DNA of 64,000 nucleotides from Paracoccaceae bacterium (GTDB lineage Bacteria > Pseudomonadota > Alphaproteobacteria > Rhodobacterales > Rhodobacteraceae). Under the pieces are notes generated by a model. The model saw only the letters and a list, made by a program, of their open reading frames with translations. It did no database searches and was not told where the DNA came from. Below, in pieces: positions 16,065-41,898 of this stretch. The stretch spans positions 7,059 through 71,058 of the forward strand of contig JAIXSA010000018.1 of NCBI GenBank assembly GCA_027484915.1, read 5' to 3'. Position numbers and translations under genes: made by a program. How positions within the stretch are numbered: the first letter of the stretch is position 1; each line of letters starts with the position of its first letter.

Positions 16065-17387
16065 GTGGCCATGCTCGTCCCCCTGAAGAACCCGACCTTC
16101 CGGCGCCTTTTTGCAGCGCAGGCGGTAGCACTGACCGGCACCGGGCTGGCCACAGTGGCACTGGGGCTTCTGGCCTATGATCTGGCGGGAGAAGACGCAG
16201 GCGCGGTCCTGGGAACGGCACTGGCGATCAAGATGGTCGCCTATGTGACGCTGGCACCGCTGGCGGCTGTCCTGGCCGCCCGACTGCCCCGCCGGGCCTT
16301 CCTGGTGGCGCTGGACCTGGTGCGGGCCGTCGTCGTGCTGGTCCTGCCGTTCGTGGATCAGGTCTGGCAGATCTACGTCCTGATCTTTCTTCTGCAGGCC
16401 GCTTCGGCGGGGTTCACGCCCGCTTTCCAGGCCACCATCCCCGAGGTCCTGCCGGACGAAACCGAGTATACTCAGGCCCTGTCGCTGATGCGGCTGGCCG
16501 AGGATCTGGAGCAGATCGCCTCGCCGCTGATTGCGGCGGCGCTGCTGGTCTTCGTCTCTTTCCCCGTGCTGTTCGCGGGAACCGTGGTGGGCTTCGTGCT
16601 GTCGGCGGCGCTGGTGGCCGGGTCACGCCTTCCCGTGCGGCGCGTGGCAGAGGACGAGCCCTTTCTCGCCGCTGCGACGCGGGGTTTGCGGATTTACGCC
16701 GCGACCCCAAGGCTGCGCGGGTTGCTGGCGCTGGAGGCCGCAGTCGCGGCGGCGGGCGCCATGGTCTATGTCAACACCGTGGTCCTGGTCGAGACGCGCC
16801 TTGCCCTTGGCGCGCCGCAGGTGGCATTGGCCTTCGCTGCCTTTGGCGGCGGGTCGATCCTGGCGGCGCTTCTTCTACCCCGGCTGCTGCACCGGGCGGC
16901 CGACCGGCCGATCATGCTGGCGGGTGCCGCGGTGATGGTCCTGTCGGTCGCCGCCGTTCCATTGGCCGGTGGTCTTGCTGCCCTCCTTTGTCTGTGGGCG
17001 CTGGCGGGTTTCGGCTTTTCCCTTACGCAGACACCGATCGGGCGCATCCTGAACCGGTCGGCCAGCGACACGGACCGCCCCGCGCTTTTCGCTGCGCAGT
17101 TCGCGCTGAGTCATGCGTGCTGGCTGGTGACCTATCCCCTGGCGGGCTGGATTGGGGCTATAGCCGGGCTGTCCACCGTCGCGCTGGGCCTTGCCGCGAT
17201 TGGGGCGGTGGCGCTTGGTGTCACACTTTTCCTGTGGCCCGCGCGCGATCCGGAGGAGCTGGACCACGACCACCCGGACCTTGCCCTCGGGCATCCGCAT
17301 CTTGCAGAGCATGGCCTTGAAGGAACCCACCGGCACCGTTTCGTGGTCGACCGGCTGCATCCCCGCTGGCCCAGCCCGGCGCGCTAG
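16065..17387 (+). CDS. MFS transporter with His-rich C-terminal tail (NreB-like metal exporter candidate)
   Basis: 12-TM MFS pattern, QFALSHACW, tail HDHPDL..GHPHL.EH...HRHRFVVDRLHPRWP; GTG start with GAGGAG RBS. Confidence 0.8.
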   Translation: MAMLVPLKNPTFRRLFAAQAVALTGTGLATVALGLLAYDLAGEDAGAVLGTALAIKMVAYVTLAPLAAVLAARLPRRAFLVALDLVRAVVVLVLPFVDQVWQIYVLIFLLQAASAGFTPAFQATIPEVLPDETEYTQALSLMRLAEDLEQIASPLIAAALLVFVSFPVLFAGTVVGFVLSAALVAGSRLPVRRVAEDEPFLAAATRGLRIYAATPRLRGLLALEAAVAAAGAMVYVNTVVLVETRLALGAPQVALAFAAFGGGSILAALLLPRLLHRAADRPIMLAGAAVMVLSVAAVPLAGGLAALLCLWALAGFGFSLTQTPIGRILNRSASDTDRPALFAAQFALSHACWLVTYPLAGWIGAIAGLSTVALGLAAIGAVALGVTLFLWPARDPEELDHDHPDLALGHPHLAEHGLEGTHRHRFVVDRLHPRWPSPAR

Positions 17388-18955
17388 GCGTCCCGCTCCA
17401 GCATCGCCTGCAGGGTCGACAGGTGGTCGGCCTCGACCGCAGGTTTGTCGTCGCGGATGCGGTTGATCCGGGGGAAGCGCATCGCGACGCCGGATTTGTG
17501 GCGGGTGGATCGGTTCAGCCCCTCGAACGCCACTTCCACGACCTTGGTGCGCGCGACGGAACGGACAGAGCCGAAGCGTTCCACCGTGTTGCTGCGTACG
17601 AAGCGGTCAAGGTCCTTCAGCTCGGCATCGGTGAAGCCGAAGTAGGCCTTGCCGACGGGGACGAGGTCGTCGCCGTTCCAGACGCCGAAGGTGAAGTCGG
17701 AGTAATAGCCCGACCGCTTGCCGTGGCCGCGCTGGGCGTACATCAGCACGGCGTCGATCAGGTGGGGGTCGCGCTTCCACTTGAACCACGGTCCCTTCAT
17801 CCGGCCCGCCAGATAGGGGCTGTCGCGGCGCTTGATCATCACGCCTTCGATGACCGTTGCAGGCGGGTTCAGGCGCAGGGCTGCAAGCTCGTCCCAGGTC
17901 TGGAAGTCCAGTTCCGGCGACAGGTCTATCCGGTGACCCAGCGGTGCCACCGCCTGCGCCAGCACTGCGCGGCGGGCGTCGTAGGGTTGGTCGCGAAGGT
18001 CCTGGCCGTTCCAGATCAGGACGTCGTAAAGCCGAAGGCCCGCCGGGTGGCTGCGCAGCATTGCGGGCGTCACCGTCTTGCGGTTCAGCCGCTGCTGGAG
18101 GTCGCCGAAGCTGGCGATCTCGTCCCCGCGGCGGACCAGAAGCTCGCCGTCGAGGGTGCCGTCGAAGTCCATCAGGTCGACGATGTCGGGGAAGGCGGTG
18201 CTGATGTCCTCTCCCGTTCTGGAATAGAGCCGCCGCGTGCCGCCGTCGCTGACGGCCTGGATGCGGATGCCGTCCCACTTCCATTCGGCGGCATAGGCGG
18301 AGGGGTCCAGCGCGGATAGCTGCTCCAAGTCGGTCGCGGTGGACAACATGACGGGGCGGAACGGCGCGCGGGCGGCGGCTTCGGGGCGGGGGGCGCTGCC
18401 AGCGGCCCAGGCGAAGAGGTCAAGGTAAGGAGGGGTGAGGGCGTGCCAGATCTCTTCAACCTCGGTCACCGGCAGATTGGCCCAGGTGGCAAAGGCGGTG
18501 CGGGCAAGGCGGGCCGAGACGCCCACCCGCAGCGCGCCGGTGGCGAGCTTGAGGTAGGCATAGCGTTCAGAGGGGCCAAGGCTGTCCAGCCGCGAGATGA
18601 TGAGGGCGGGCAGCCGGGTCTTGGGCGTGGTGGAAAGTTCTTCGACGACCTCGGACAGGGGTGGGTCCGACCGCGTGCCCTCGGGCCAGATCAGCGCGAT
18701 GGTTTCAGCAAGATCGCCGACGAAGTCATAGCTTGCGGCGAAAAGCTGAGCGTCCACTCGTGTTTCCGCCAGCCCACGCAACAGGCTTGGCGTGACCTGC
18801 CGCAGCTTCAGGTCGCCGGTGATCGCGGCCAGCATAAGTCCGCGCTGGGGGTCGAGGGTGTCGCTAAAGGCTTGGGCCAGAAGCCTTTCCTTCCCCAGCC
18901 TTTGCGGCGTGAAGGCCAAGCGTTCCAGAAGCGTGGCGAAGGCGGCAAGGCTCAT
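17384..18955 (-). CDS. ATP-dependent DNA ligase (ligase-associated DNA damage response type)
   Basis: AEWKWDGIR (KxDG), LDGELL, EGVMIKR, WFKWKRDP, RFPRI. Confidence 0.93.
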   Translation of the reverse strand: MSLAAFATLLERLAFTPQRLGKERLLAQAFSDTLDPQRGLMLAAITGDLKLRQVTPSLLRGLAETRVDAQLFAASYDFVGDLAETIALIWPEGTRSDPPLSEVVEELSTTPKTRLPALIISRLDSLGPSERYAYLKLATGALRVGVSARLARTAFATWANLPVTEVEEIWHALTPPYLDLFAWAAGSAPRPEAAARAPFRPVMLSTATDLEQLSALDPSAYAAEWKWDGIRIQAVSDGGTRRLYSRTGEDISTAFPDIVDLMDFDGTLDGELLVRRGDEIASFGDLQQRLNRKTVTPAMLRSHPAGLRLYDVLIWNGQDLRDQPYDARRAVLAQAVAPLGHRIDLSPELDFQTWDELAALRLNPPATVIEGVMIKRRDSPYLAGRMKGPWFKWKRDPHLIDAVLMYAQRGHGKRSGYYSDFTFGVWNGDDLVPVGKAYFGFTDAELKDLDRFVRSNTVERFGSVRSVARTKVVEVAFEGLNRSTRHKSGVAMRFPRINRIRDDKPAVEADHLSTLQAMLERDA

Positions 18956-19950
18956 TCCGCTTCGTCCTCGTAGCCGACGAGGTGCAGGGGGCGGGCCTTG
19001 CGCTGGTTCAACTCGCACCAGCGCATCAGGGCGTCCTCGCGGCCGTGGGTGATCCAGACTTCTGCAGGGTTCAGTTCGGTGATCGTGTCGGTCAGGTGCG
19101 GCCAGTCGACGTGGTCCGAGATGATCAGTGGCAGTTCGACGCCACGCTGCCGGGCGCGGGCGCGGACCTGCATCCAGCCAGAGGCGAAGGAGATCACGGG
19201 GTCGGGGAAGCGTTGCGCCCAAGTGGCGGCGAAGGCCGAGGGGGGCGCGATGACGATGGCCCCGGCAAAGTCGGCCTTCGTCCCCCCGGTGGCGGGGCGC
19301 AGGTCGCCGAGGTCGATGCCCCCCGCGATGTGGTAGTCGCAGAGCCGCTGCAGCGCGCCGTGGATGTAGATCGGCGCGTCCCAGCCTGCCTGCCGCAAGG
19401 CTCCGATCAGCCGTTGCGCCTTGCCCAAGGCATAGGCTCCGATCAGGTGCGACCGTTCCGGGAAGGCCGCGACCGACGCGAGGAGGCGGGCGATCTCGAC
19501 CTCGGGCGGGGGGTGGCGGAAGACGGGGAGGGCAAAGGTTGCCTCGGTCACGAAGATGTCGCAGGGCACCGGCTCGAACGACGCGCAGGTGGGCGACGGG
19601 ACGCGGGCGTAGTCGCCCGAGACCACGATGCGGCAGCCCCGGCCTTCCACCGCGATCTGGGCCGAGCCAAGGACATGGCCCGCGGGGTGGAAGCTGACCG
19701 TCGCCTCGCCCAGCGTGACGGGGCCGTCATAGGCTTGGCGCGACGTACAGAACTCCTCGCCGTAGCGAATCGCCATGATGTCCAGCGTCTGGCGTGTCGC
19801 CAGCACGGCGCCGTGCCCCGGGCGGGCGTGGTCCGAATGACCGTGGGTGATCAGCGCACGCGGCACCGGGCGCAGCGGGTCGATGAAGAAATCCCCCGCC
19901 GGGCAGTAAAGCCCCTCGGGACGGGGAAGGAGAAGCGGCTCGCGGGCCAT
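18952..19950 (-). CDS. Ligase-associated DNA damage response exonuclease (beta-CASP/MBL)
   Basis: ALITHGHSDH, PAGHVLGSAQI, VTEATF, ISDHVDW; 4-nt overlap with the ligase gene. Confidence 0.92.
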   Translation of the reverse strand: MAREPLLLPRPEGLYCPAGDFFIDPLRPVPRALITHGHSDHARPGHGAVLATRQTLDIMAIRYGEEFCTSRQAYDGPVTLGEATVSFHPAGHVLGSAQIAVEGRGCRIVVSGDYARVPSPTCASFEPVPCDIFVTEATFALPVFRHPPPEVEIARLLASVAAFPERSHLIGAYALGKAQRLIGALRQAGWDAPIYIHGALQRLCDYHIAGGIDLGDLRPATGGTKADFAGAIVIAPPSAFAATWAQRFPDPVISFASGWMQVRARARQRGVELPLIISDHVDWPHLTDTITELNPAEVWITHGREDALMRWCELNQRKARPLHLVGYEDEAE

Positions 19951-20021: not shown

Positions 20022-20046
20022 GGAACAATGGTGGCACAGCCGCGTT
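20022..20046 (+). promoter_or_regulatory. EcfG-type promoter
   Basis: GGAAC-N16-CGTT upstream of the 54-aa ORF at 20098. Confidence 0.75.
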
Positions 20047-20097
20047 GCAGGGTCATGGGTCCGGATGCCGGGCCGCAAACCGCAACGGAGAGCTGCA

Positions 20098-20262
20098 ATG
20101 GACGAACTTACCCTTGGTGCAGTCGTGTTCCTGATCCTGCTGGCCATCTCTCTGGTCGGCCTGTTCTGGTCCTCGCGCCAGGCCGACCGGCTGGATGGCG
20201 AGCGTCGCCAGCGCAGGACACTGGTGCGCGAGGATGGCACGGTGGTTGGAGCCCCGCTTTAG
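20098..20262 (+). CDS. Small single-TM protein (54 aa)
   Basis: MDELTLGAVVFLILLAISLVGLFWSSRQADR...; GGAGAG RBS and EcfG-type promoter. Confidence 0.65.
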   Translation: MDELTLGAVVFLILLAISLVGLFWSSRQADRLDGERRQRRTLVREDGTVVGAPL

Positions 20263-20424
20263 GCATCCAGCAACCCCAGCCGGAACCGTGGCGTTCCTGC
20301 CCGGCCCAACCGGCAAAGCGGCTGGTAACCGGGAGGAGGCTCTGGTTCCGGGTCGCCATGGTCGAAGGCGACCCTGCGGGGCGTCGGTGGCGGGTTGGTC
20401 TTGAACGGCCTTCATCTTGGGCAA

Positions 20425-21381
20425 TCAATCAAGGCGGGGAAGGACGCTGGTGCCAAAGGCGTCGATGAAGGCCTCTTGGTTCCGGCCGATGCAGTGAAGG
20501 TGGACTGTGGCTCCAAGTGCGGCCAGTGACGCGATGTCGGCGGTGTGGCGGCCAAGGTCTTCGGAGATCGGGATCCGGTCGGCCAGCGCTGCCTCGGAAG
20601 CGGCGTCCGAGGCGCTGTCAAAGTCGGCCGGTCGGCGCAGGTCCCACATCGCCTCGCCACCCAGGATTCCGTGGCGCCACTGGTGCATCGCCTCGGCCAT
20701 CGCGGTCGCCCGGTCGGGTGCCCAGGACAGCGCGTGCTGGATGTGGACCGGCTTGCCCTCGCCACCATTCTCGCGGAAGGCGCGCAGGACGGGGAGGACG
20801 GTCTCGACCTTCCCGCCGACAGTCAGAAGGCCGTCGGCCCAGGTGGCGACCTCGGCGGCGGTTTCCTTGCTGACGGCGGCGGCGTAAAGCGGCATCCGCT
20901 GCTTGGGACGCGAATAGAGCCGGGCGCTGATGACGGTAACCCGACCGCGGTGGGTGACTTCATCTCCGTCGAAGAGAGCCCGGATGATCGCGGCGCATTC
21001 GGCAAGACGCGCGTTGCGTTCGGCCTTCTCGGGCCAGGGCAAGCCTGTGATCGCCTCGTTGATCGCCTCGCCGCTGCCAAGGGCCAGCCAGAAGCGGCCC
21101 GGGAACATCTCGGCCAGTGTCGCGGCGGCCTGGGCAAGGACGGCGGGATGCATGCGATACCCCGCCGAGGCGATAGAGCCGAAGGGCAGGTCACAGGCGT
21201 GCATCGCGGCCCCGAGCCAGGCCCAGGAAAACCCGGACTGACCTTGCCGCACGCTCCACGGATGGAAATGGTCCGAGCATTTGATCGCCGTGAATCCGGC
21301 CTTTTGCGCACTGCGGCACAAGGACAAGAGACGGGACGGGGCGAACTGTTCGTGCGAGGCGTGAAAGCCGATCTGCGCCAC
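20425..21381 (-). CDS. LLM-class flavin-dependent oxidoreductase (TIGR03885-like)
   Basis: IGFHASHEQF, SDHFHPWS..QGQSGF.WAWLGAA, LGSGEAINE. Confidence 0.88.
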   Translation of the reverse strand: MAQIGFHASHEQFAPSRLLSLCRSAQKAGFTAIKCSDHFHPWSVRQGQSGFSWAWLGAAMHACDLPFGSIASAGYRMHPAVLAQAAATLAEMFPGRFWLALGSGEAINEAITGLPWPEKAERNARLAECAAIIRALFDGDEVTHRGRVTVISARLYSRPKQRMPLYAAAVSKETAAEVATWADGLLTVGGKVETVLPVLRAFRENGGEGKPVHIQHALSWAPDRATAMAEAMHQWRHGILGGEAMWDLRRPADFDSASDAASEAALADRIPISEDLGRHTADIASLAALGATVHLHCIGRNQEAFIDAFGTSVLPRLD

Positions 21382-21429
21382 GATCAGCGATGTCCTGTGA
21401 ACCGGGAAAGAGGCGAAGGCATGCCGCGA

Positions 21430-21654
21430 TCAGGCCCGGCGCCGGGATATGTCGGGCGTGTCGTTGTTCGCCGCGCGGTCGGGCGGGGTGGCAAAAGTTG
21501 ACTTGCCGATGTCCTGATCCGCGTCGTAGAAAAGCTCGGCCTCGGCTTGCTGCCAGTGGCGGTTGGCGCAGCCATCCGGGCAACCATCGGCCTGCCACAG
21601 GCTGTAGGCGCGTTCGCGGATGCGGTCTTCGGGGACGCTGGGTGTTCTCATCAT
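21430..21654 (-). CDS. DUF2934 domain protein
   Basis: EDRIRERAYSLWQADGCPDG.ANRHWQQAEAEL. Confidence 0.88.
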   Translation of the reverse strand: MMRTPSVPEDRIRERAYSLWQADGCPDGCANRHWQQAEAELFYDADQDIGKSTFATPPDRAANNDTPDISRRRA

Positions 21655-21691
21655 TTCCTCCGTCAGGCGGGAGTGGATCGTCGGATGGGAC

Positions 21692-21716
21692 AACCGTGAG
21701 CACCGCAAAATGTTCC
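21692..21716 (-). promoter_or_regulatory. EcfG-type promoter
   Basis: Minus strand GGAAC-N16-GGTT upstream of DUF2934. Confidence 0.72.
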
Positions 21717-21818
21717 TGTGGGGAACCCCGGCGGCACAAGGGCTGCCGTGGCAGGTTGGCATAGACGGCGCCGGGGTCGGCGGCTATCACTCGTCCGGCC
21801 CGCAACGGAGGATGACAG

Positions 21819-22976
21819 ATGCAACTTGCCGCCAGTGACGTGCTGCCCATTGATGCACCCAAGGCGATCCTTGTCGGTCGCGTCTGGTCCGAAGCGGCGG
21901 GTGGTCCCTGCCCCGTGCTGGTGCGCGAGGGGCGGCTTCTGGACCTGTCGTCGCTTTGCGCCACGGTATCGGGCCTGATGGAGGTCGACGGCCTGGCGGA
22001 CTGGCTGGCCCAGGCCACGGGGTTGCCGGACCTTGGGTCGGTCGACGATGCGCTTGCGGGGCGCGGCCTGACGCTTCTGGCGCCGATCGATCTGCAGGCG
22101 GTCAAGGCTGCGGGCGTCACCTTTGCCGACAGCATGGTGGAACGGGTGATCGAAGAGCAGGCCAAGGGCGACAGCGGCCGCGCCGAGGCGATCCGGGCCA
22201 AGTTGGCCCCGGTGATCGGCGACAGCCTGCGGGGCGTCCCTGCCGGGTCGGAAAAGGCGCGCGAGGTGAAGCGCGTCCTGCAGGACCTTGGCCTCTGGTC
22301 GCAGTACCTGGAGGTGGGCATCGGTCCGGACGCCGAGATCTTCACCAAGGCGCAGCCGATGGCCTCGGTCGGGTGTGGGGCGGATGTGGGCATCCACCCG
22401 ATCTCGGAATGGAACAACCCGGAACCCGAGGTGGTCCTTGTGGTCCGTTCGGACGGCACGATCCTGGGTGCAACGCTGGGCAATGCCGTCAACCTGCGCG
22501 ACGTCGAGGGGCGGTCGGCGCTGCTTCTGGGCAAGGCCAAGGACAACAATGCCTCTTGCGCCGTGGGCCCGTTCCTGCGGCTGTTCCACGGTGATTTCAC
22601 GATGACGGTGCTGGAGGCGGTGAAAGTCTCGCTGCGGGTCACGGGCGGGGACGGGTTCGAGATGACGGGCGAAAGTGCAATGGCCGCGATCAGCCGCAAG
22701 CCTGCGGACCTGGCGCGGCAGCTGCTGAACCGCAACCACCAGTACCCCGATGGCGCGGTCCTGTTCCTGGGGACGATGTTCGCCCCGGTGAAGGATCGGC
22801 GCGGGGCGGGGCAAGGCTTCACGCACGAGGTGGGCGACGTGGTCGAGATCGCAAGCCCGCTGTTGGGCCGTCTGGTCAACCGGGTGATGCGCACCGATCA
22901 CTGCCCCGAGTGGACCTTCGGCACTCGCGCGCTGATGCGGAACCTGGCGGCACGGGGCCTGGCTGACCGGGTATAA
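21819..22976 (+). CDS. Fumarylacetoacetate hydrolase family protein (2-keto-3-deoxy sugar acid dehydratase-like)
   Basis: VKAAGVTF, GIGPDAEIFTK, WNNPEPEV, GN(A)VNLRDVEGRSAL, KAKDNNAS, LFLGTMFAP. Confidence 0.9.
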   Translation: MQLAASDVLPIDAPKAILVGRVWSEAAGGPCPVLVREGRLLDLSSLCATVSGLMEVDGLADWLAQATGLPDLGSVDDALAGRGLTLLAPIDLQAVKAAGVTFADSMVERVIEEQAKGDSGRAEAIRAKLAPVIGDSLRGVPAGSEKAREVKRVLQDLGLWSQYLEVGIGPDAEIFTKAQPMASVGCGADVGIHPISEWNNPEPEVVLVVRSDGTILGATLGNAVNLRDVEGRSALLLGKAKDNNASCAVGPFLRLFHGDFTMTVLEAVKVSLRVTGGDGFEMTGESAMAAISRKPADLARQLLNRNHQYPDGAVLFLGTMFAPVKDRRGAGQGFTHEVGDVVEIASPLLGRLVNRVMRTDHCPEWTFGTRALMRNLAARGLADRV

Positions 22977-22977
22977 G

Positions 22978-23002
22978 GGAACTACCCATGTGACTGCGGG
23001 TT
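22978..23002 (+). promoter_or_regulatory. EcfG-type promoter
   Basis: GGAAC-N16-GGTT upstream of ORF 23037. Confidence 0.7.
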
Positions 23003-23036
23003 TACCCTGGCTGCAACAGCCTCAGGGAGAAAGCCG

Positions 23037-23243: not shown

Positions 23244-23250
23244 ACGCGGC

Positions 23251-23276
23251 GAAGCCCGGCCGCTGGGCCGGGCTTC
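23251..23276. terminator. Hairpin between convergent small genes
   Basis: GAAGCCCGGCC-GCTG-GGCCGGGCTTC, 11-bp stem. Confidence 0.6.
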
Positions 23277-23386
23277 CCGTCACGAAGGGCGAAGCATCGC
23301 AAGTCGGGGGACATCATGCCGTGGCCCTGCGTGCACGGACGTGCAGTCCGCAGGGCGCGGCCCAACAGGGCCACACCCTTTGGCCA

Positions 23387-34392: not shown

Positions 34393-34404
34393 CCGGGGTT
34401 TCGG

Positions 34405-34515: not shown

Positions 34516-35115
34516 ATGAAACATCTATTTCTTGCCGTGCCCGCTGTGGCGCTGTTCGCCGCCGGGGCCTTTGCCCAGACCGATACCACCACTGGGGCGA
34601 CCACCGGCACCGACGCCGGTGCTACCGTGGATGCCACCGTTGACACCACGACGGGCGCCACCACCGGCACCAGCGCGGATGGGTCCGTGACCTTTGGGAC
34701 CAACTGGCCCTTGTCGGTCGGCACCACCTTCTTCATGGACGCCGACAGCGGCACGCTGCGCACCTCGGACGAGATCGGCAGCGGATGGCAGTCCCTGAGC
34801 CAGGAAGACCGCGACATGATCAAGGCGGACTGCCTGACCTTCATGGCGGCGCATGGTGATGCAGCGCCCACGACGGGGGCCGATGCTTCGACCGGGACCT
34901 CGACCGACACGACGGCCGGGGCGTCGACTGACGCTGGCGCTGCGACCGACACGGCGACCACCGGGACTGCGACGGATACCACGGCCGATGCCGCGACCAG
35001 CACCGATACGGCGACCGGAACCGGCACCGCATCGACCGAGGGAACCATCGCGACGGCCGTGGGTTATGACATGACCGAGATGAAGGCTATCTGCGAAGCA
35101 GTTCAGGGCCTCTGA
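34516..35115 (+). CDS. Secreted Thr/Ala/Asp/Gly-rich protein
   Basis: Signal peptide MKHLFLAVPAVALFAAGAFA; two T-rich tracts flank a folded core with two Cys; GAAAGGA RBS. Confidence 0.8.
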   Translation: MKHLFLAVPAVALFAAGAFAQTDTTTGATTGTDAGATVDATVDTTTGATTGTSADGSVTFGTNWPLSVGTTFFMDADSGTLRTSDEIGSGWQSLSQEDRDMIKADCLTFMAAHGDAAPTTGADASTGTSTDTTAGASTDAGAATDTATTGTATDTTADAATSTDTATGTGTASTEGTIATAVGYDMTEMKAICEAVQGL

Positions 35116-35197
35116 TCACGGTCCCTTTGCCGCCGGCAGACCTCAGCCGGCGGCCCTGACGAACCGGCGGGCGGACGTCCCTCCCTTCCTGCCGGCG

Positions 35198-35241
35198 CCG
35201 GTGGTTGCAAGCGCGATGCTTGTGGCCACCGGTTTCTTTTT
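35198..35241 (+). terminator. Intrinsic terminator
   Basis: CCGGTGGTTGCAAGC-GCGAT-GCTTGTGGCCACCGG then TTTCTTTTT. Confidence 0.75.
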
Positions 35242-35309
35242 GCCCCCAGGACAGGCGCGGAAGCAGGCCGAGCGGCCTGGAATGGAGGCGCAGCCAGCCG
35301 CGCAATTCT

Positions 35310-35335
35310 GGAACATTCGGGCGTGCGCGCCGGTT
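35310..35335 (+). promoter_or_regulatory. EcfG-type promoter
   Basis: GGAAC-N17-GGTT(GA). Confidence 0.75.
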
Positions 35336-35406
35336 GATCCTTTGTCCGTGAAGGACAGCCCGGCCACGACGGGCGTGTTCCGAAGGCGCAGCAACTGGAG
35401 AGAACA

Positions 35407-36000
35407 ATGGCACAGAAATACGCAGACGACGACTATGATCGCGGCGGTCAGGGTGGGCGCAGCCGCTCGTCCGCAGGCCGCGGTGGCTATGACGACGACA
35501 TGGAGCGCGGCTATGGCGGCCGTCGTGGCGGGTCCTCGTCCTCGCGCGGGTCGTCCGCATCCTCCCGCGATGAGGATGAGGATTACGGCAGCTACGGCGG
35601 TTCGCGCAGCGACTGGTCCGAAAGCAGCGGCCGGGGCTATGGGTCGCAAGGACGCGGCGGTCAGGGCTATGGCAGCGAAGGCGGCTATGGCCAGGGCTAC
35701 GGCCAAGGCGGTTATGGCCAGGGCGGCTACGGCCAGGGTGGCTCGCAGGGGACGGGCGGTCAGGCCGGATCGGGCCACGACCCGCACTACCACACCTGGC
35801 GCGAGCGCCAGATGCAGGCCCACGACGAGGACTACAAGGCCTTCAACGAAGAGCGCCAGAAGAAGTTCGAATCCGAGTTCGAGGAATGGCGCAAGAACCG
35901 CAAGTCGGGCTCGGGTTCGGGCGCGCAAGGCGGGTCGGGGTCCAGCATGAGCGGCAGCTCGGGCTCGGAAAGCGGCGGATCGTCCTCCAAGAAGAACTGA
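35407..36000 (+). CDS. Gly/Ser/Tyr-rich low-complexity stress protein with a short helical domain
   Basis: GQGGY repeats plus HDPHYHTWRERQ...DEDY...ERQKKFESEFEEWRK; GGAGAG RBS. Confidence 0.8.
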   Translation: MAQKYADDDYDRGGQGGRSRSSAGRGGYDDDMERGYGGRRGGSSSSRGSSASSRDEDEDYGSYGGSRSDWSESSGRGYGSQGRGGQGYGSEGGYGQGYGQGGYGQGGYGQGGSQGTGGQAGSGHDPHYHTWRERQMQAHDEDYKAFNEERQKKFESEFEEWRKNRKSGSGSGAQGGSGSSMSGSSGSESGGSSSKKN

Positions 36001-36018
36001 CGCAAACGACCGCGTCGC

Positions 36019-36052
36019 GCACCGGCTGGCCCCCCAGCCGGTGCTTTTCTTT
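36019..36052 (+). terminator. Intrinsic terminator
   Basis: GCACCGGCTGG/CCAGCCGGTGC stem followed by TTTTCTTT. Confidence 0.75.
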
Positions 36053-36075
36053 GGCCCGGTTCGCATGGACCGGGC

Positions 36076-36100
36076 GGAACATTCGCCACCCTCTCCGGTT
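36076..36100 (+). promoter_or_regulatory. EcfG-type promoter
   Basis: GGAAC-N16-GGTT. Confidence 0.75.
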
Positions 36101-36153
36101 CAATGGGAAGCGGGTGGCGACAGCCGCCGCACCATCAGCAACGGAGAGCATCG

Positions 36154-36978
36154 ATGGACAGGAACTCGAATGACCGCGAGCGTGACGAGTATGGCCGTTT
36201 CAGCAGTGATGATGACCGGGGTGGCAGCTCGTCGCGTGGCGGCGGCCGGTCTTCCTGGCGCTATGACGACGACGACCGCCGCAGCTCGGCCAGCGACCGT
36301 GGCAGCGAGGACCGCGAACGGGACCGTTATGGCCGGTTCACAAGCGACGATGATGACCGGGGCGGACGCTCGTCCTCGGGGCGTTCGTCGGGTGGCCGCA
36401 GCAGCGCCAGCGATGACCGCGAACGCGACCGCAACGGCCGGTTCATGAGCGACGATGACGACCGCCGTTCCTCGTCTGGCCGTGGCCGGTCCTCGTCGCG
36501 CGATGACGACGATGACCGTCGCAGCGGCAGCGGGCGTGGCGGTAGTGACGACCGCGAACGGGATCGTTTCGGTCGGTTCATGAGCGATGATGATGACCGC
36601 CGTTCCTCGTCTGGCCGTGGCCGGTCCTCGTCGCGCGATGATGACGACGACCGCGAGCGGGATCGTTTCGGCCGGTTCATGAGCGATGACGACGACCGCC
36701 GGTCGGGTCGGTCTTCCGGTGGCGGCGACGGTCGCGGCTGGTTCGGCGATTCGCGGGGCCATGCCGAGGCGGCGCGCCGGGGCTGGGAAAACCGCGACGA
36801 CGATGATCGTGGCGGGCGGTCGTCCGGTGGGCGGTCCTCCTCCCGTGACGATGACGACGACCGTCGCGGCGGTTCACGCGCATCTTCGCGCGGGGGCGAT
36901 GACCGCAGCCAGGGTGGCTGGTTCGGGGATTCCGAAGGCCATGCCGAAGCCGCGCGCCGCGGTTGGCGCAACCGCTAA
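36154..36978 (+). CDS. Arg/Asp/Ser-rich repeat hydrophilin
   Basis: Five RERDxxGRFxSDDD units and two [17 protein letters not shown] units; GGAGAG RBS. Confidence 0.8.
36439..36653 (+). repeat. Intragenic direct repeat, 80 nt x2 at a 135-nt period
   Basis: 36439-36518 vs 36574-36653 differ at 4 positions, all GAC/GAT synonymous; a partial further copy lies at 36661-36700. Confidence 0.85.
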
Positions 36979-37054
36979 GCGCAACAAGGGGCTGGCCCCG
37001 GCAATTCACGCTGCCGGGGCCAGTCGCCATTTACGCCCGCAATCCCAGGAGCCC

Positions 37055-39157
37055 ATGATGAAGTCGTCCGAAACGCAGTTGCAGAACAGCACCGACGGCG
37101 GTCCCGCCGAAGTCCATCAGACCGTCGAAACCGGTGCCGAGGCGCTGACTACCTCGCAGGGGGTGACGATCTCGGACAACCAGAACAGCCTGACGGCCGG
37201 CGTGCGGGGTCCGACGCTGCTGGAGGACTTTGTCCTGCGTGACAAGATCTTCCACTTCGACCACGAGCGCATCCCGGAGCGCGTGGTCCATGCGCGGGGG
37301 TTCGGGGCGCATGGCACCTTCGAATGCACCCGCGACCTGTCGGACATCACTCGAGCGGCACCGTTCCAAGAGGTGGGCAAGCTGACCGAGACCTTCGTGC
37401 GCTTCTCGACCGTGGCGGGGAACAAGGGGTCCTTCGACCTTGCGCGCGACGTGCGCGGCTTTGCGGTGAAGTTCTACACCGATGAAGGGAACTGGGATCT
37501 GGTCGGCAACAACATCCCGGTGTTCTTCATCCAGGACGCGATGAAGTTCCCCGACCTTGTCCATGCCGTGAAGGACGAGCCGGACCGCGGCTTTCCCCAG
37601 GCGCAATCGGCGCATGACAATTTCTGGGACTATATCTCGCTGACGCCGGAATCGATGCATATGGTGATGTGGCAGATGTCCGACCGCACGATCCCCCGGT
37701 CTTTCCGCACGATGGAGGGCTTCGGGGTCCACACCTTCCGGCTGATCAACGCCGAGGGCGCGTCGACCTTCGTCAAGTTCCACTGGAAGCCGCGGCAGGG
37801 TCTGCAGTCGGTCCTGTGGGACGAGGCAGTGAAGATCAACGGCGCGGACCCCGACCACCACCGCCGCGACCTGTGGGAGGCGCTGACCACGGGTGACCAT
37901 CCGCAATGGGACCTGTGCCTGCAGATGTTCGACCAGGACTTCGCCGACAGCTTCGACTTCGACATCCTGGACCCGACGAAGATCATCCCCGAAGAGCTGA
38001 TCCCGCCGGAACCGGTGGGCACGCTGACGCTGGACCGCGCCGTGGACAACTTCTTCGAGTTCACCGAGCAGGTCGCCTTCTGCACCCAGCACGTGATTCC
38101 GGGCATCGATTTCACCGAGGACCCGCTATTGCAGGGGCGGAACTTTTCCTACCTCGACACGCAGCTCAAGCGGCTGGGCAGTCCGAACTTCAGCCAGCTT
38201 GAGGTCAACCGCCCACGCGGCTGTCCGATGCACAACTTCCAGCAGGACGGGCAGATGCGGAAGGGCAACCGCCGGGGCCGGGTGAACTATGAGCCGAACG
38301 GGTTCGAGGAAGGCCCGCGCGAAGACCCGCTGAAGGGCTATGTCAGCTATGCCGCTCCGGTTGAGGGGGCCAAGGTCCGGATCCGTGCGGAGAGTTTCGC
38401 CGATCACTACAGCCAGGCCCGGCAGTTCTACATCAGCCAGACCGCGGTGGAGCAGGAGCATATCCGCTCGGCGCTGGCTTTCGAGCTGGGCCGGTGCGAG
38501 CAGGCACGGGTCCGGCGTGCCATCGTCGGCCATCTGCGCAACATCGATGAGGATCTGGCACAGGGTTTGGCAGATGGCTTGGGGATGCCCGAACTGCCGC
38601 CCCCCGCAACGGCGGCCCGGCCGACTCGGCAGGACCTGCCAGCCTCGGACGCGCTAAGCATCCTGAAGAATGGCCCCGAAACCTTTGCCGGTCGGGTGCT
38701 GGGCGTGCTGATCGCCGACGGCTTTGACGGCACGCTTCTGGACCGGCTGACCGGCGCGGTGACCGAGGCGGGGGGCAAGGTAAAGCTGATCGCCCCGCGC
38801 ATCTATGGCGCGCGGGACGACCGGGGCGACTTGTGCGAGGCACAGTTTTCGGTCGCGGGCGGGCCGTCGGTCCTGTTCGATGCGGTGGCGGTGCTGATCG
38901 GCCCTGAAGGCGAGGCAGCGCTGGCCGCGATGCCCCAGGCGCAGACCTTCCTGCGCGACGCCTTTGCGCATGGAAAGTTCATCGGCCATGCGATGGCTGA
39001 GAAGCTGTTCGAGGCGGCGGGGCTGCAGGGCAAAGCCGACGACGGCTGCTTCGACCTGGGCCTGGTAGATGATGGCGAGACGGTCGACGCTTTCGTCAGC
39101 CGCTGCGCCAGGCTGCGGCACTGGTCGCGGGACGGATTGGCAAAGGCCGCTCCATAG
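37055..39157 (+). CDS. katE: Large-subunit catalase HPII with C-terminal DJ-1-like domain
   Basis: [48 protein letters not shown]. Confidence 0.96.
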
Positions 39158-39182
39158 GCCTGAAGCCTCGCCAGGATGAACC

Positions 39183-39208
39183 AAGGGGCCCGCGGGACGG
39201 GCCCCTTT
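39183..39208 (+). terminator. Intrinsic terminator after katE
   Basis: AAGGGGCCCG-N5-CGGGCCCCTTT. Confidence 0.7.
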
Positions 39209-39263
39209 GCTTTGGGCCTGTGGTGCAGATATGGCACATCCCGCGCGCGGTTCGCCCCTGGCT

Positions 39264-39288
39264 GGAACACCGCCCCGTCCCACAGGTT
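39264..39288 (+). promoter_or_regulatory. EcfG-type promoter
   Basis: GGAAC-N16-GGTT. Confidence 0.7.
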
Positions 39289-39356: not shown

Positions 39357-40184
39357 ATGACGAAATCCCTTGCCCTTGCCGGGGCGAGCTGGCTGGCGCT
39401 TTGCGCGGCCACCGCCACGGCCCAAACCACCATCACCGGCGTCGACGACATCGACGACCGCATCACCGATATCGAAGAGGTCGCCACTGACGAGATCGAA
39501 CGATCTGAGGACCCGCTACGCTATGGCAATCCCGACGACCGCCAGGGCTTTTCCGGATCGGCCTCGCTGGCCTATTCCGGCAAGACCGGGAACAACGAGT
39601 CGCAGGAGCTTAGCCTTAGCACCCGGCTGCGCTATGCCGCCGGACCCTGGGTCCAGACCCTGGGTGTCGCGCTGGACTATGCCGAGGACGACGTGGAGCG
39701 CACCAAGGAAGACGCGCTGATCGTTCATGACGCGAACTACTACTTCAACGACCGGTTCTACGCCTTCATCCTTGGTCGGGCCGAGATCGACGGGCTGGCC
39801 GACACGGCCGACGAGATCGAGACCGACGCCTTCGTCGGCTTCGGGCCGGGCTACCGGATCATCAACCAAGAGGACATGACCTGGCGCGTGCAGGCCGGTC
39901 TTGGCGTCAGCTACCTGCGCGACGGGGTGGGGGACAGCGACACCTCGGAAGGGGTGATCGCCAGCTCGCGGTTCTTCTACCGCTTCTCGCCGGACGTGTT
40001 CATGACCAACGACACCGACGTCCTGCAGGCGAACGACGCGCTGCGGGTCAACAACGACTTTGGTGTCAGCTTCCAGATGACCGACGTGCTGTCGACGCGG
40101 TTGAGCTATCTCACCGACTACAACGAAGCCCGCGCGATCCGGACCGACAACCGGGTCAGCCTGGCCATCGTCTACGGCTTCTGA
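39357..40184 (+). CDS. DUF481 (YdiY-like) outer-membrane beta-barrel protein
   Basis: Signal peptide, GKTGNN, GFGPGYR, WRVQAG.G, C-terminal VYGF. Confidence 0.85.
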   Translation: MTKSLALAGASWLALCAATATAQTTITGVDDIDDRITDIEEVATDEIERSEDPLRYGNPDDRQGFSGSASLAYSGKTGNNESQELSLSTRLRYAAGPWVQTLGVALDYAEDDVERTKEDALIVHDANYYFNDRFYAFILGRAEIDGLADTADEIETDAFVGFGPGYRIINQEDMTWRVQAGLGVSYLRDGVGDSDTSEGVIASSRFFYRFSPDVFMTNDTDVLQANDALRVNNDFGVSFQMTDVLSTRLSYLTDYNEARAIRTDNRVSLAIVYGF

Positions 40185-40218: not shown

Positions 40219-41898
40219 TCAGGTCGCGGGTGGGGCGATCACCGCAGCGGCCGGGGCGGCCAGGCGGCAGATCAGGCCGAGCGGATGATGGGTGATCTCG
40301 ACCGTGCCGCCAGTCTGCGCCGACAGGGCGTGCCTGATGACCTTGGAGCCGAATCCGGTGCGGTCCGGTTTCGTCACTGGCGGCCCGCCCCGTTCGGTCC
40401 ACAGCAGGGTAAAGACCTCACCCTTCTCGCCGGGCTCCAGGCCCCATTCGATCAGAATGGTCCCGCTCTCGGTGCTGAGCGCGCCGTATTTCACCGCGTT
40501 GGTGGAAAGCTCGTGGATAGACATGCCGATGGCAGTGGCGACATTGCCCTTGACCACAAGGTCCGGCCCCTTCGTCTCGACCCGCCCCTTGTCTTCGCCG
40601 ATGAAGGTTGCGACGCCGTTGGCGATCAGTTCGCGTAGGGGGGTGCTTGTCCACCCTGACTGCTTGAGCAGCCGGTTCGCCTCGCTGATGGCGTTCAGCC
40701 GGTCCGAGAAGACCCGCAAAGCCGCGTCGTTTCCGCCGTTGGCAAAGGTCTGCCGGGCGACGGCCTGGATCGTCGCCAGCAGGTTCTTTTCGCGGTGCTC
40801 CAGCTCATCCCGCATCAGGTCGCGCGCCTCGTCCGCCTTCTGGCGCGCCTCGCGGTTTGTCAGGACTTCGGTCAGGAAGGCATCAAGCGCCGCCCCGGCA
40901 TCGCCGATCTCGCCATTCTCCTCGCTCATCCCGGTGCGGGCCGTGGTCTTGCCGTTGCGCCAGGCGGTGATCGTGTCGATCAGGACCCCGACCGGACGCG
41001 CGATGAAGACGCGGGCGGTGTAGAAGGCCAGGAGCGACGCCAGCGCGGTGCCCAGCAGCGCGAGGCCCAGGCCCTGCAGCGCGACGGTGCGCATCGTCTC
41101 AAGCCCGGCGGAAATCGAGTAGCCGGCGCTGATGTAAAGCCCCGAGGCATTTGCGGCGGGCGGAAAATACCCCAGGATCCGACGGGTTCCGTCCTGGCTG
41201 AGCACCTCCATCGAGCCTGGGCGCGCCTCTTCAAGGTAGGACATGAATTCAGGCCGGATACTGGTTCCGACGAAGGTTTGCGGATCGGGAACCCGTGCCA
41301 GGATGATTCCGCCGCGGTCGACGATGGTCAGCGAATTCCCAGGCGCAAGCGAGCGGCGCTGCAGACGCTGCTCCATCCATTTCAGGTCCAGGTGGGCCAC
41401 CGCTGTACCCGGCGTCCCATTGCCATCCTCGCCAATTTGCAAGACCAGCGGCAGGCGCGGGGCGCCGTTGGCGGTTCGGTGGAACGTGCCTGGCAGTGGC
41501 TTGCCCGAAGTCGCCTGTGCGATCAGCTCGGCCGGGGCCAGGTCCAGGCTGGCCGGAGGAACCGAACTGCAGCGGATGCTGCCGTCCGGGTTCAGGATGT
41601 AAAGCTGGGCGATGAAGTCAACCGCCTTGACCGCATCGGCCAGCAGACCAGAGCAGGCGCTGTCCCCCGTGCGCACGACCGGGGCCGCAGCCAGGGTGCG
41701 CAGGACGCTTTCCAGGCCTGCGAAGGTCTGCTCGACTTCGAGCGAGACCAGTTCTGCGGTCCGCAGGGCATCGCTGTGCAGGTCGGCGGTCCGGTCGCGC
41801 TGAATGGTGATGATGTTGGAGATGGCGATTGCCACCGCGGGCAGGAGGGCCACGGCCGTTACCGCGAACAGGCGTGAAGACAGCGACTTAAGCCGCAC
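40219..41898 (-). CDS. Membrane HWE-family sensor histidine kinase with Cache-like periplasmic domain
   Basis: Two TM helices; ELEHREKNLL (HRxxN), HELSTNAVKYGALS, WTERGGP, GFGS; GTG start at 41898 after GGGAGG. Confidence 0.9.
   Translation of the reverse strand: MRLKSLSSRLFAVTAVALLPAVAIAISNIITIQRDRTADLHSDALRTAELVSLEVEQTFAGLESVLRTLAAAPVVRTGDSACSGLLADAVKAVDFIAQLYILNPDGSIRCSSVPPASLDLAPAELIAQATSGKPLPGTFHRTANGAPRLPLVLQIGEDGNGTPGTAVAHLDLKWMEQRLQRRSLAPGNSLTIVDRGGIILARVPDPQTFVGTSIRPEFMSYLEEARPGSMEVLSQDGTRRILGYFPPAANASGLYISAGYSISAGLETMRTVALQGLGLALLGTALASLLAFYTARVFIARPVGVLIDTITAWRNGKTTARTGMSEENGEIGDAGAALDAFLTEVLTNREARQKADEARDLMRDELEHREKNLLATIQAVARQTFANGGNDAALRVFSDRLNAISEANRLLKQSGWTSTPLRELIANGVATFIGEDKGRVETKGPDLVVKGNVATAIGMSIHELSTNAVKYGALSTESGTILIEWGLEPGEKGEVFTLLWTERGGPPVTKPDRTGFGSKVIRHALSAQTGGTVEITHHPLGLICRLAAPAAAVIAPPAT

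Follow-up and report, generated by a model that had tools for sequence, protein, structure and literature searches.

A likely general stress response block with predicted EcfG-type promoters and a receiver-sigma-2 regulator in a Paracoccaceae bacterium

The general stress response (GSR) constitutes a central survival system of Alphaproteobacteria, and its PhyR switch is, to our knowledge, treated as invariant in architecture. Here, a gene cluster is described which encodes an EcfG-type sigma factor, a NepR-like protein, an HWE-family histidine kinase and a response regulator in which a receiver is followed by a sigma-2-like domain (REC-sigma2), together with an array of predicted EcfG-type promoters. 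The cluster occupies positions 17384-41898 of a 64,000-nucleotide stretch of DNA from a Paracoccaceae bacterium (assembly GCA_027484915.1, contig JAIXSA010000018.1; hereafter the window), in which 31 genes lie between an MFS gene (16071-17387) and ureD (42183-42995). It is likely that the cluster is a chromosomal block of the alphaproteobacterial GSR, made up of the sigma factor, its regulators and the promoters they control.

A canonical PhyR is present in Rhodobacter sphaeroides (PMC5830050). GSR promoters are of the form GGAAC-N16-CGTT, in which the -35 box is conserved and the -10 box is flexible, and published EcfG regulons include ku-ligD and catalases; the EcfG regulon of Sphingopyxis granuli TFA comprises 104 genes in 79 operons (PMC7083833). 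The regulator SdrG takes part in the GSR, its partners being HWE/HisKA_2 kinases (PMC5898713).

The initial annotation of the window, made by a model from the letters, had proposed a self-contained and portable stress and desiccation island at 17384-41898. All families that it named were recovered in this interval by Pfam and NCBIfam profile scans of the called proteins, which are the source of the family assignments given below. Related and control loci carry L-numbers, of which L086 belongs to Tabrizicola sp., L096 to Tabrizicola thermarum and L006 to T. soli.

The sigma factor and the EcfG-type promoter array

The sigma factor of the cluster (27985-28458, +; 157 aa) consists of a sigma-2 and a sigma-4 domain (Sigma70_r2 and Sigma70_r4_2), the former being EcfG/PhyR-like (PhyR_sigma2, 57.1 bits; cutoff 27), as is characteristic of the EcfG (ECF15) group. 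Along its full length, it shares about 43% identity with the L041 and L023 sigma factors, each of which is encoded directly after a canonical nepR gene; both loci were taken from a genome-contig scan and served, together with L035, as canonical nepR-ecfG controls. The sigma gene of the cluster is not part of an operon behind nepR: the nepR-like gene lies 4.8 kb away on the opposite strand, and the sigma gene has a conserved predicted promoter of its own. This promoter (27933-27957, +) is a variant of the form GGAAC-N16-AATT located 27 nt before the start, and the sequence GGAACCGC-N-(A/G)ATT(A/G)ACCC is conserved in all six loci of an alignment of the region, the -10 block containing two variable positions. 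A conserved promoter variant with a weak -10 box in front of the sigma gene leads to the prediction of autoregulation, and target promoters of the GGAAC-N16-CGTT type are found in silico throughout the cluster.

Searching the window with the strict pattern GGAAC-N15-18-CGTT yielded six matches versus 1.9 expected; with this pattern the signal was underestimated, the local -10 box being mostly GGTT. The pattern GGAAC-N16/17-GTT matches 18 times in the window, whereas 2.63 +/- 1.70 matches were obtained in 100 dinucleotide-preserving shuffles, none of which reached 18, and 16 of the 18 matches are located inside the cluster. A weight matrix derived from 17 sites (local consensus GGAAC-a-n-t ... 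c-c-G-G-T-T; listing threshold 12 bits) was then used for a rescan, which added a site with a GATT -10 box upstream of the gene pair for a 56-aa protein and a DUF3008 protein. With the aligned site of the sigma gene included, 19 predicted EcfG-type sites are spread over 20022-39288 (19.3 kb); all of them are intergenic, lie on the strand of the adjacent gene and precede its start by 21-126 nt, and every intergenic match in the cluster that scores at least 15 in the matrix scan faces a gene start within this same distance. Intergenic DNA makes up about 14% of the cluster, and sigma-70-like sites occur over the same 20 kb at chance level (2 vs 1.5). The 19 predicted promoters (GGAAC, 16-17 nt, [C/G]GTT or weaker ATT) are expected to drive about 25 genes, whose products comprise Ku, Ku-LigD, MPG, catalase, DUF892, oxidoreductases, DUF2934, DUF3008, PRC and DUF481 proteins and a dozen small membrane or hydrophilic low-complexity proteins.

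The sites also recur in related clusters. Motifs are present upstream of orthologous genes in L004, L086, L087 and L006, their density reaches 6.8-11.7 per 10 kb in L090-L092, the median for 67 unrelated loci of Alphaproteobacteria being 0.7, and they are kept at orthologous positions within intergenic DNA that otherwise diverges. The suggestion that regulator and regulon are physically clustered thus finds support in 19 correctly oriented intergenic motifs that recur upstream of orthologous genes.

From left to right, the array begins with the predicted promoter of a gene for a 54-aa membrane protein (20022-20046, +; GGAAC-N16-CGTT, score 19.6, 51 nt before the start), which has an orthologous motif in L004, and continues with those of the DUF2934-LLM operon (21692-21716, -; score 23.6, 40 nt), a 68-aa membrane protein (22978-23002, +; 21.3, 34 nt), a Q/G-rich protein (23625-23649, -; 28.5, 52 nt) and the first Ku copy (23657-23682, +; 15.9, 26 nt), the spacer of the last being one nucleotide longer. 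The site of the operon for the second Ku and LigD (27846-27871, -; 18.8, 45 nt) has the -10 box TGTT, and its GGAACC is kept in five of six aligned loci, the exception being L004, which is devoid of Ku. Beyond the sigma gene follow the sites of the DUF892 gene (28467-28491, +; 20.5, 42 nt), again with an orthologous motif in L004, and of the gene for an 88-aa T/A/G-rich membrane protein (30298-30322, +; 22.8; -10 box TGTT). A palindromic, bidirectional pair of the form GGAAC-N17-GTTCC at 31097-31123 matches the pattern on both strands and would serve the MPG gene (+) and the gene for a 90-aa protein (-); its minus-strand site scores 18.5, and the plus-strand MPG site, one of the training sites, falls under the 12-bit listing threshold. 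Similar GGAAC-N17-GTTCC palindromes occur at 34405-34431 of the window and at 8217-8243 of L087.

In the right half of the array, the variant with the GATT box precedes the 56-aa/DUF3008 pair (31903-31927, +; 15.4, 24 nt) and has an orthologous motif in L086. Two divergent promoters are placed back to back at 32559-32608, one for a 63-aa protein (32559-32582, -; 22.4) and one for the PRC-barrel protein (32584-32608, +; 23.4). The remaining sites are those of a 62-aa Pro-rich protein (33012-33036, +; GGAAC-N16-CGTT, 15.9, 45 nt), a 199-aa T/A/G/D-rich protein (34405-34429, +; 20.7; orthologous motifs in L086 and L087), a G/S/Y-rich protein (35310-35335, +; 27.3), a D/R/S repeat protein (36076-36100, +; 23.8, 53 nt before 36154), from which the catalase gene katE is probably also served by read-through, and the DUF481 protein (39264-39288, +; 15.8, 68 nt before 39357).

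Outside the cluster, only two good candidate sites are found in the window. One of them (57089-57114, -) is located 22 nt before an operon for nitronate monooxygenase and 5-formyltetrahydrofolate cyclo-ligase, which is a possible regulon member outside the cluster. The other (60327-60351, +; GGAAC-N16-CGTT, score 21.1) falls within the 3' end of a FemAB-like gene and 120 nt before a GST gene (60472-61083); in T. thermarum, this GST gene is missing from between the corresponding neighbours.

The receiver-sigma-2 regulator, the NepR-like protein and a possible switch

The response regulator REC-sigma2 (33817-34392, +; 191 aa), as characterised by profiles, alignments and a model, combines a FAT-GUY-type receiver (residues 8-115, with D57, K102 and the motif PYVFFTGY) with an EcfG-like sigma-2 domain of three helices (residues 122-182). 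In profile comparisons, the receiver is closest to the FAT GUY regulators Sma0114 (PDB 2LPM, E 1e-21) and SdrG (PDB 5IEB, E 6e-21), which are the best matches of the family profile, and next to PhyR receivers; the acidic pair E14/D15, D57 and K102 vary hardly, if at all, among 79 homologues. Residues 122-182 align with residues 2-62 of the cluster's own EcfG (95.9%, E 5e-9), and the region also matches the sigma-2 domains of 5UXX, 1H3L and 2O7G. The basic residues of regions 2.3/2.4 are replaced, MRNRFYNDR of EcfG being aligned to MDEIMAAG of REC-sigma2, which fits a decoy that no longer contacts DNA. In an AF2 model (pLDDT 80, pTM 0.58), three helices come after a receiver fold; the sigma-2 assignment is based on the sequence profiles and not on a fold search.

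PhyR proteins carry sigma-2 and sigma-4 at the N-terminus and the receiver at the C-terminus. The domain order of REC-sigma2 is reversed and sigma-4 is absent, and it is therefore not a member of the PhyR family, to whose NCBIfam model it scores 43.8 bits versus a cutoff of 240. What it shares with PhyR is a receiver with a phospho-acceptor aspartate and a sigma-derived domain devoid of DNA-contact residues, and, judged from these features, it could work like PhyR. Literature searches returned no paper describing the receiver-sigma2 architecture. The family is sizeable: about 100 full-length clusters at 90% identity were found among the top matches listed, and 163 representatives at 50% identity have E values of at most 1e-30, most of them being full length, so that the family comprises well over 100 clusters. 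A genome-contig scan with the REC-sigma2 alignment, which relied on a receiver-only peptide pattern, brought up mostly single-domain regulators, besides one clear full-length relative, in L006, and a match to residues 2-164 in L026.

The gene neighbourhoods of REC-sigma2 homologues hint time and again at the GSR. In seven loci (the window, L086, L087, L090, L091, L092 and L093), the gene and a nepR-like gene are transcribed divergently; it adjoins an HWE kinase gene in L087 and Actibacterium, and stands behind an EcfG-type promoter motif in L086, Actibacterium and Ensifer. REC-sigma2 loci on plasmids of Ensifer, Paracoccus and Mesorhizobium are surrounded by genes for ECF sigma factors, DUF2934, PRC, CsbD and ferritin-like proteins and catalases, the motif density being 3.6-4.8 per 10 kb. 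In L098 (Paracoccus sp. AK26 plasmid pAK1, 7983-9833) and L100 (Ensifer adhaerens plasmid, 7684-8615), the homologue is encoded beside an ECF sigma gene, and small proteins encoded nearby carry a NepR-like motif (..QPIPPRLKELADRL.. and ..DDIPDRLLILANRL..); in Ensifer, the small gene with this motif abuts the REC-sigma2 gene and lies downstream of a GGAAC-N16-CGTT motif. The profile support for these plasmid-encoded proteins being NepR is weak and suggestive only.

The nepR-like gene of the cluster (33295-33465, -) encodes a 56-aa anti-sigma candidate with the core ...RLFEDAKAEPVPDVIIQLAQELD. The initial annotation had called it NepR. A profile-profile comparison (hhalign) of four cluster NepR-like proteins with three canonical NepR proteins gave a match of 93.6% (E 2e-7) over 27 columns covering the core motif, the helix motif ..F/L.E....EP.P..l..L...L is common to the NepR-like proteins and to proteins encoded upstream of ecfG, and a tblastn search with the NepR-like protein hits the nepR position of L041. 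Its relatives, however, reach only 12.9-21.8 bits on the Pfam NepR model, with 21.8 for the best of them and 12.9-13.1 for others, as compared to 53.3 for a canonical control. The product of 33295-33465 is thus better described as a divergent NepR-like protein than as a certified member of the NepR family, and its binding to the sigma factor or to REC-sigma2 is putative. In the relative with the reduced cluster (L004, 9470-9700; L005, 1723-1953), the nepR-like gene carries a 33-nt in-frame deletion which removes the first half of the conserved core (11 codons), and its stop is lost; the lesion is the same in two independent assemblies. The REC-sigma2 protein of L004 is intact, but only 62% identical to that of the window, compared to 82-93% for neighbouring proteins.

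A perfect 14-bp palindrome, GACCAAATTTGGTC (33522-33535), is located 57 nt before the start of the nepR-like gene and is a candidate operator, which may be bound by a dimeric regulator of nepR. It is kept with one change in L092, the closest relative, in a near-identical block, and an alignment of the nepR/REC-sigma2 intergenic region of six loci revealed no conserved EcfG-type motif and no further locus sharing the palindrome. The sensor histidine kinase (40219-41898, -) has a PhyK-like layout with a periplasmic dCache domain (dCache_1) and an HWE kinase core (HWE_HK, 70.9 bits; cutoff 22.8); it aligns end-to-end with the NCBIfam PhyK model, but scores 50.7 bits versus a cutoff of 750. A homologue in the cluster of L087 is 56% identical.

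Together, the gene families, the promoter array with its conservation and the domain make-up of the regulators, all established in silico, suggest a PhyR-like switch. In an unstressed cell, the NepR-like protein would hold the sigma factor. Upon stress, the dCache-HWE kinase would phosphorylate Asp57 of REC-sigma2, whose EcfG-like sigma-2 domain would then bind NepR as a decoy, thereby switching partners as PhyR does. The freed sigma factor would amplify its own synthesis and fire the local promoters, and their products would prepare the cell for desiccation-type damage, that is, double-strand breaks, oxidation and water loss. Such damage is fitted by end joining via two Ku proteins and LigD, by MPG through base excision, by KatE through the removal of peroxide, by iron and oxidant handling by DUF892, and by the redox enzymes and the envelope and small hydrophilic proteins. 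It is tempting to go one step further and to regard REC-sigma2 as a minimal, domain-swapped PhyR analogue that, once phosphorylated by an HWE kinase, would expose its one EcfG-like sigma-2 domain and thereby capture a dedicated, divergent NepR, and that would form, together with an EcfG paralogue and clustered targets, a second self-sufficient stress module exchanged among Alphaproteobacteria, which resides on the chromosome in Tabrizicola-like bacteria and on plasmids in Ensifer, Paracoccus and Mesorhizobium; this extension is tentative.

Alternative readings and the history of the locus

Several observations weigh against a GSR block that carries its own switch. The promoters are all predictions from sequence, and the matrix scan detected no EcfG-type motif before the genes of three of the regulators, namely the nepR-like protein, REC-sigma2 and the kinase, nor before the ligase-exonuclease operon and the FAA-hydrolase-like gene; these last two transcription units may be neighbours rather than members of the regulon. 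The NepR-like protein of the window has no sequence match in Pfam, including the NepR model PF18557 (gathering score 25.7), or in PDB. Neither a Pfam scan nor profile alignment revealed a sigma-4 domain in REC-sigma2. In PhyR-NepR structures, sigma-4 forms part of the NepR interface, and binding of NepR by REC-sigma2 may thus be weak or different. The AF2 model leaves the relative orientation of its two domains unfixed, as indicated by the pTM of 0.58, and Foldseek matches of the model were dominated by the receiver, the top whole-chain matches, to the ANTAR protein Rv1626 and PorX, being set aside for their rmsd of about 8-9 A. Finally, L086, L087 and L006 have no sigma gene within 10 kb of the cluster, which is hence not always self-contained, and a canonical PhyR may be encoded elsewhere in this genome, as in R. 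sphaeroides, so that the module may be less self-contained than proposed.

It is highly improbable that the motif matches are not functional promoters, with the genes merely lying together and GGAAC...GTT reflecting local composition. A few matches of the matrix scan do fall inside coding sequence (28123, 35041, 39733 and 53214), but the count in the window is beyond the reach of the shuffled sequences, the matches concentrate in the small intergenic fraction of the cluster with correct strand and distance, and orthologous positions are conserved amid diverging DNA. A more serious contender accepts the EcfG regulon but assigns the switch to a canonical PhyR elsewhere in the genome. REC-sigma2 would then be an accessory, either as a phosphate sink or relay like SdrG/MrrA, as a brake that competes for NepR or the RNA polymerase core, or as one half of a two-part sigma factor. 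This explanation has a considerable, though less than even, chance of being right: R. sphaeroides, which belongs to the same family, has a canonical phyR-nepR-ecfG locus, homologues of REC-sigma2 occur in Ensifer and Mesorhizobium, both of which are known to possess PhyR, the nearest matches of its receiver are GSR-modulating single-domain regulators of the FAT GUY type, sigma-4 is missing, and in L004 REC-sigma2 is still intact although 11 core codons and the stop of the nepR-like gene are gone. The divergent layout of the REC-sigma2 and nepR-like genes, however, mirrors that of phyR and nepR and persists across seven loci, the sigma-2 domain resembles most closely that of the cluster's own EcfG and no longer has the basic residues which sigma factors employ at the -10 element, a better fit to a decoy than to half a sigma factor, and in most comparisons no other two conserved cluster proteins evolve as fast as REC-sigma2 and the NepR-like protein, as expected of interacting partners.

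The third explanation, by which a portable genomic island was acquired horizontally and travels as one unit from genome to genome, is unlikely, although presence of the genes is patchy at a conserved site. In T. thermarum, as revealed by blastn and tblastn of L096 against the window, a segment of 41.9 kb (15983-57871) is absent from this locus; the window flanks 1973-15982 and 57872-64000 are collinear and adjacent there, leuD being joined to the genes from 58009 on. Still other genes follow leuD in Fuscovulum ytuae and Neotabrizicola shimadae, related clusters are flanked otherwise, by AsnC/LysR in L086 and by cox genes in L087 and L090, and the plasmid-borne REC-sigma2 neighbourhoods of Ensifer, Paracoccus and Mesorhizobium are rich in EcfG motifs, one being located beside traA/mobC. 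On the other side, the segment missing in T. thermarum is not restricted to stress genes, as it includes the MFS gene, the stress cluster, the complete urease operon, a urea ABC transporter, the 5-FTHF cyclo-ligase/nitronate monooxygenase genes and a DUF4202 gene. Pfam and NCBIfam scans detected no integrase or transposase family in any gene scanned, no tRNA was found, and no direct or inverted repeat flanks the cluster, long-range repeats being at chance level and only coding tandem repeats occurring inside low-complexity genes. That integrase, tRNA and flanking repeat were not seen had already been noted by the initial annotation. The composition is native: GC content, GC3 (0.841 vs 0.853 for cluster and flanks) and tetranucleotide usage are indistinguishable from the flanks, the tetranucleotide distance leaving the flank range solely in the low-complexity genes at 32.5-40 kb, and the proposed composition check thus gives no indication of foreign origin. 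A DNA search of PLSDB found no plasmid with more than the Ku-LigD part of the cluster.

The most informative relative in this context is L004, a 489-kb contig which carries a 10-kb version of the cluster at the same leuD-ureD site. This version is devoid of Ku-LigD, SDR, DUF3008, the low-complexity genes, KatE, DUF481 and the kinase, and its well-conserved proteins (82-93% identical to those of the window; EcfG 92%, DUF892 90%, ligase 90%) are diverged about as much as the flank proteins (77-97%; LeuD 93%, UreD 77%, UreC 97%). Comparison of the leuD-ureD region, suggested as a check on the island, thus gives a divided answer, with the segment missing in T. thermarum and other flanks in relatives, but a reduced cluster at the same position in L004. 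The portability of the module is not supported as first proposed, given its native composition, the lack of an integrase, tRNA or flanking repeat and the site shared with L004, and the extent of 24.5 kb holds for the named families, all of which fall inside it, but not for the variable segment, which is 41.9 kb long when compared to T. thermarum.

Among the other relatives, L092 and L093 contain the same genes in the same order, with REC-sigma2 proteins that are 76-77% identical; in L090 and L091 the block of Ku, sigma and DUF892 genes is inverted; and L086, L087 and L006 keep a core block of MPG, DUF3008, PRC, nepR-like, REC-sigma2 and low-complexity genes and either KatE or the kinase, all three having flanks unlike those of the window. 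As judged by these sequence comparisons, the cluster belongs to the flexible genome and gives no sign of self-mobility, and its difference from T. thermarum is explained by gain or loss alike. The likely GSR block at leuD-ureD would then be an old, plastic feature of Tabrizicola-like Paracoccaceae, which appears to have been kept as a unit while modules were gained, lost and inverted. LeuC of the window is 93-95% identical to LeuC of Tabrizicola, Fuscovulum and Rhodobacter species. The sequence of the window is found in aquatic and freshwater metagenomes, whose contigs cover the region continuously (about 52x in one run); apparent joints in these contigs were judged spurious, their shorter side measuring only 20-30 nt. 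At the T. thermarum junction, leuD and a YjgF-family gene are separated by 170 nt of unrelated sequence.

Gene content and comparison with known systems

The GC content of the window is about 66% throughout (0.64-0.69), so that mechanical lists of open reading frames (ORFs) are noisy. Genes were called with a codon-usage caller trained on the long ORFs of the window, which yielded 73 genes, refined to 78 including seven small genes; those at 29134-29340, 31952-32122, 32346-32537 and 33082-33270 were taken from gene calls on identical metagenome contigs. Products of at most 100 aa are encoded by 13 of the 31 cluster genes versus 7 of the 47 genes outside the cluster. The estimate of more than ten small or low-complexity proteins was accordingly sound, as there are at least 13 proteins of up to 100 aa and three longer low-complexity ones.

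The cluster is rich in genes for DNA repair. At its left end, an ATP-dependent DNA ligase of the 'cisplatin damage response' type (17384-18955, -; TIGR04120, 779.6 bits, cutoff 400; Pfam ligase domains) forms an operon with a ligase-associated DNA damage response exonuclease of the MBL fold (18952-19950, -; TIGR04122, 473.6 bits, cutoff 325). The genes for bacterial non-homologous end joining (NHEJ) consist of a first Ku copy (23709-24518, +; PF02735, 154.5 bits), LigD with phosphoesterase (LigD_N), ligase and primase-polymerase domains assigned by Pfam (24515-26962, -), and a second Ku copy (26964-27800, -; PF02735, 138.5 bits), which is the first gene of the Ku-LigD operon; two Ku genes and a three-domain LigD are thus present. 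A methylpurine-DNA glycosylase (MPG) is encoded at 31195-31740 (+; PF02245, 176.8 bits).

Enzymes and other proteins with assigned families include an FMN-dependent LLM-class oxidoreductase (20425-21381, -; TIGR03885, 444 bits, cutoff 398.7) downstream of a 73-aa DUF2934 protein (21430-21651, -; PF11154, 55.7 bits), and a 385-aa protein with a weakly FAA-hydrolase-like C-terminus (21819-22976, +; PF01557, 22.9 bits, below the cutoff of 23.9), which is 88% identical in L004. A DUF892/YciF ferritin-like protein is encoded at 28534-29031 (+; PF05974, 208.9 bits), and the genes for a 68-aa hydrophilic protein (29134-29340) and an SDR oxidoreductase (29337-30194) overlap by 4 nt (29134-30194, +) and are kept as a pair in L087, L092 and L006. 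The catalase is of the large-subunit (KatE/HPII) type (37055-39157, +; 700 aa; Catalase, 584 bits, Catalase-rel and Catalase_C) and is 85-86% identical in L086 and L090; its start is at 37055 and not at 36686 as first annotated, since the long ORF 36686-39157 overlaps the real D/R/S-repeat gene at 36154-36978 in another frame and was rejected. A PRC-barrel protein of 98 aa (32659-32955, +; PF05239, 29.3 bits) and a DUF481 outer-membrane-type protein (39357-40184, +; PF04338, 119.6 bits) complete this group.

The small proteins are diverse. Two are predicted to contain one hydrophobic helix, a 54-aa protein (20098-20262, +; 85% identical in L004) and a 68-aa protein (23037-23243, +; homologues in L087, L090 and L091). 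They are joined by a 61-aa Q/G-rich hydrophilic protein (23387-23572, -; Q 38%, G 21%, GRAVY -2.44), an 88-aa protein whose N-terminal helix is followed by a T/A/G-rich tail (30449-30715, +), a conserved 90-aa protein without assigned function (30803-31075, -; 51-80% identical in six related loci), a 63-aa basic protein (32346-32537, -; called in L001 and 45% identical in L087) and a 62-aa acidic protein with 35% proline (33082-33270, +; 76-87% identical in L086, L087 and L092). At 31952-32311 (+), a gene for a 56-aa P-rich protein (31952-32122) precedes the DUF3008 gene (32126-32311), which contains an in-frame TAG at codon 9 (32150-32152; MPAKSKAQ*KAAG...). DUF3008 is intact with 60-61 aa in L086, L087, L090, L091 and L092, and the TAG site is covered by contigs from two runs without a variant among the differences listed, 102 more being unlisted; it looks like a real nonsense mutation, or a case of reinitiation at TTG 32171, rather than an assembly slip.

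Three longer low-complexity proteins were recognised by their composition. A 199-aa protein with a signal-peptide-like N-terminus and T/A/G/D-rich repeats (34516-35115, +) is predicted to be secreted, and a terminator-like hairpin follows its gene at 35197-35233; a second such hairpin (36019-36044) lies downstream of the gene for a 197-aa G/S/Y-rich hydrophilic protein (35407-36000, +; G 26%, GRAVY -1.63). The 274-aa R/D/S/G repeat protein (36154-36978, +; GRAVY -2.15) is encoded by tandem repeats of 99-135 nt (21-residue units), and its C-terminus consists of two copies of a 17-residue motif, which matched no Pfam or NCBIfam model and recalls small 'stress-induced' proteins. The many small, extremely hydrophilic proteins of the cluster may be desiccation protectants.

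On the urease side, the gene for a urtA-like urea-binding protein (Peripla_BP_5) is split into parts of 74 aa (49378-49602) and 329 aa (49630-50619), which cover profile positions 1-60 and 72-362; its homologue in L004 is a single 430-aa gene, and the version in the window is likely a pseudogene or a frameshift. A match to the Rfam family 5_ureB_sRNA (101 bits; 45693-45980, -) lies antisense inside the gene for the urease alpha-subunit and may reflect coding conservation instead of a real antisense RNA.

With about twenty predicted EcfG promoters and their regulators in 20 kb, the locus offers a compact test bed for promoter strength, variation of the -10 box, bidirectional palindromic promoters and the evolution of regulons, and the cluster is a defined block for asking what suffices for tolerance of desiccation and double-strand breaks. 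Genes of the receiver-sigma-2 family are found again and again in association with those for NepR-like proteins, ECF sigma factors and HWE kinases and with EcfG-type promoter motifs; should its members prove to be anti-anti-sigma factors with half a sigma mimic, the minimal requirement for a partner switch would be redefined.

The closest described system is the PhyR-NepR-sigma(EcfG) switch of Methylobacterium, Caulobacter, Sphingomonas and Sinorhizobium. The cluster shares with it an ECF sigma factor whose sigma-2 domain is EcfG-like, promoters of the GGAAC-N16-CGTT type and autoregulation, both being predicted for the cluster, as well as a small NepR-like protein, a receiver with a sigma-like decoy domain encoded divergently from nepR and an HWE-family kinase nearby. 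In contrast to PhyR, the receiver of REC-sigma2 comes first, sigma-2 is the only sigma domain and the protein has 191 aa instead of about 265; moreover, the nepR-like gene is separated from ecfG, its product remains under the Pfam threshold, and about twenty predicted target promoters are assembled at the regulators' own locus. The regulon of Sphingopyxis granuli TFA likewise contains ku-ligD, catalases and small 'general stress' proteins and has the same -35 box and a flexible -10 box, but its 79 transcription units are reported as separate, whereas the cluster packs at least 19 predicted units and the regulators into 19.3 kb, a packing that is conserved across a clade. The motif P-[YF]-V-F-[FY]-[TS]-G-Y of REC-sigma2 resembles the PFxFATGY of the FAT GUY single-domain regulators Sma0114 and SdrG, which, however, are receivers only and lack the additional 70-aa EcfG-like sigma-2 domain. 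With classical genomic islands, the locus has in common a variable segment with adaptive functions that is absent in a close relative, but it differs by the missing integrase, tRNA, flanking repeats and compositional deviation and by a variable segment that exceeds the stress cluster and includes urease genes. Taken together, the probably co-regulated cluster is a variant of the known EcfG general stress system, distinguished by the conserved packing of regulators and promoters and by the apparently undescribed REC-sigma2 family.

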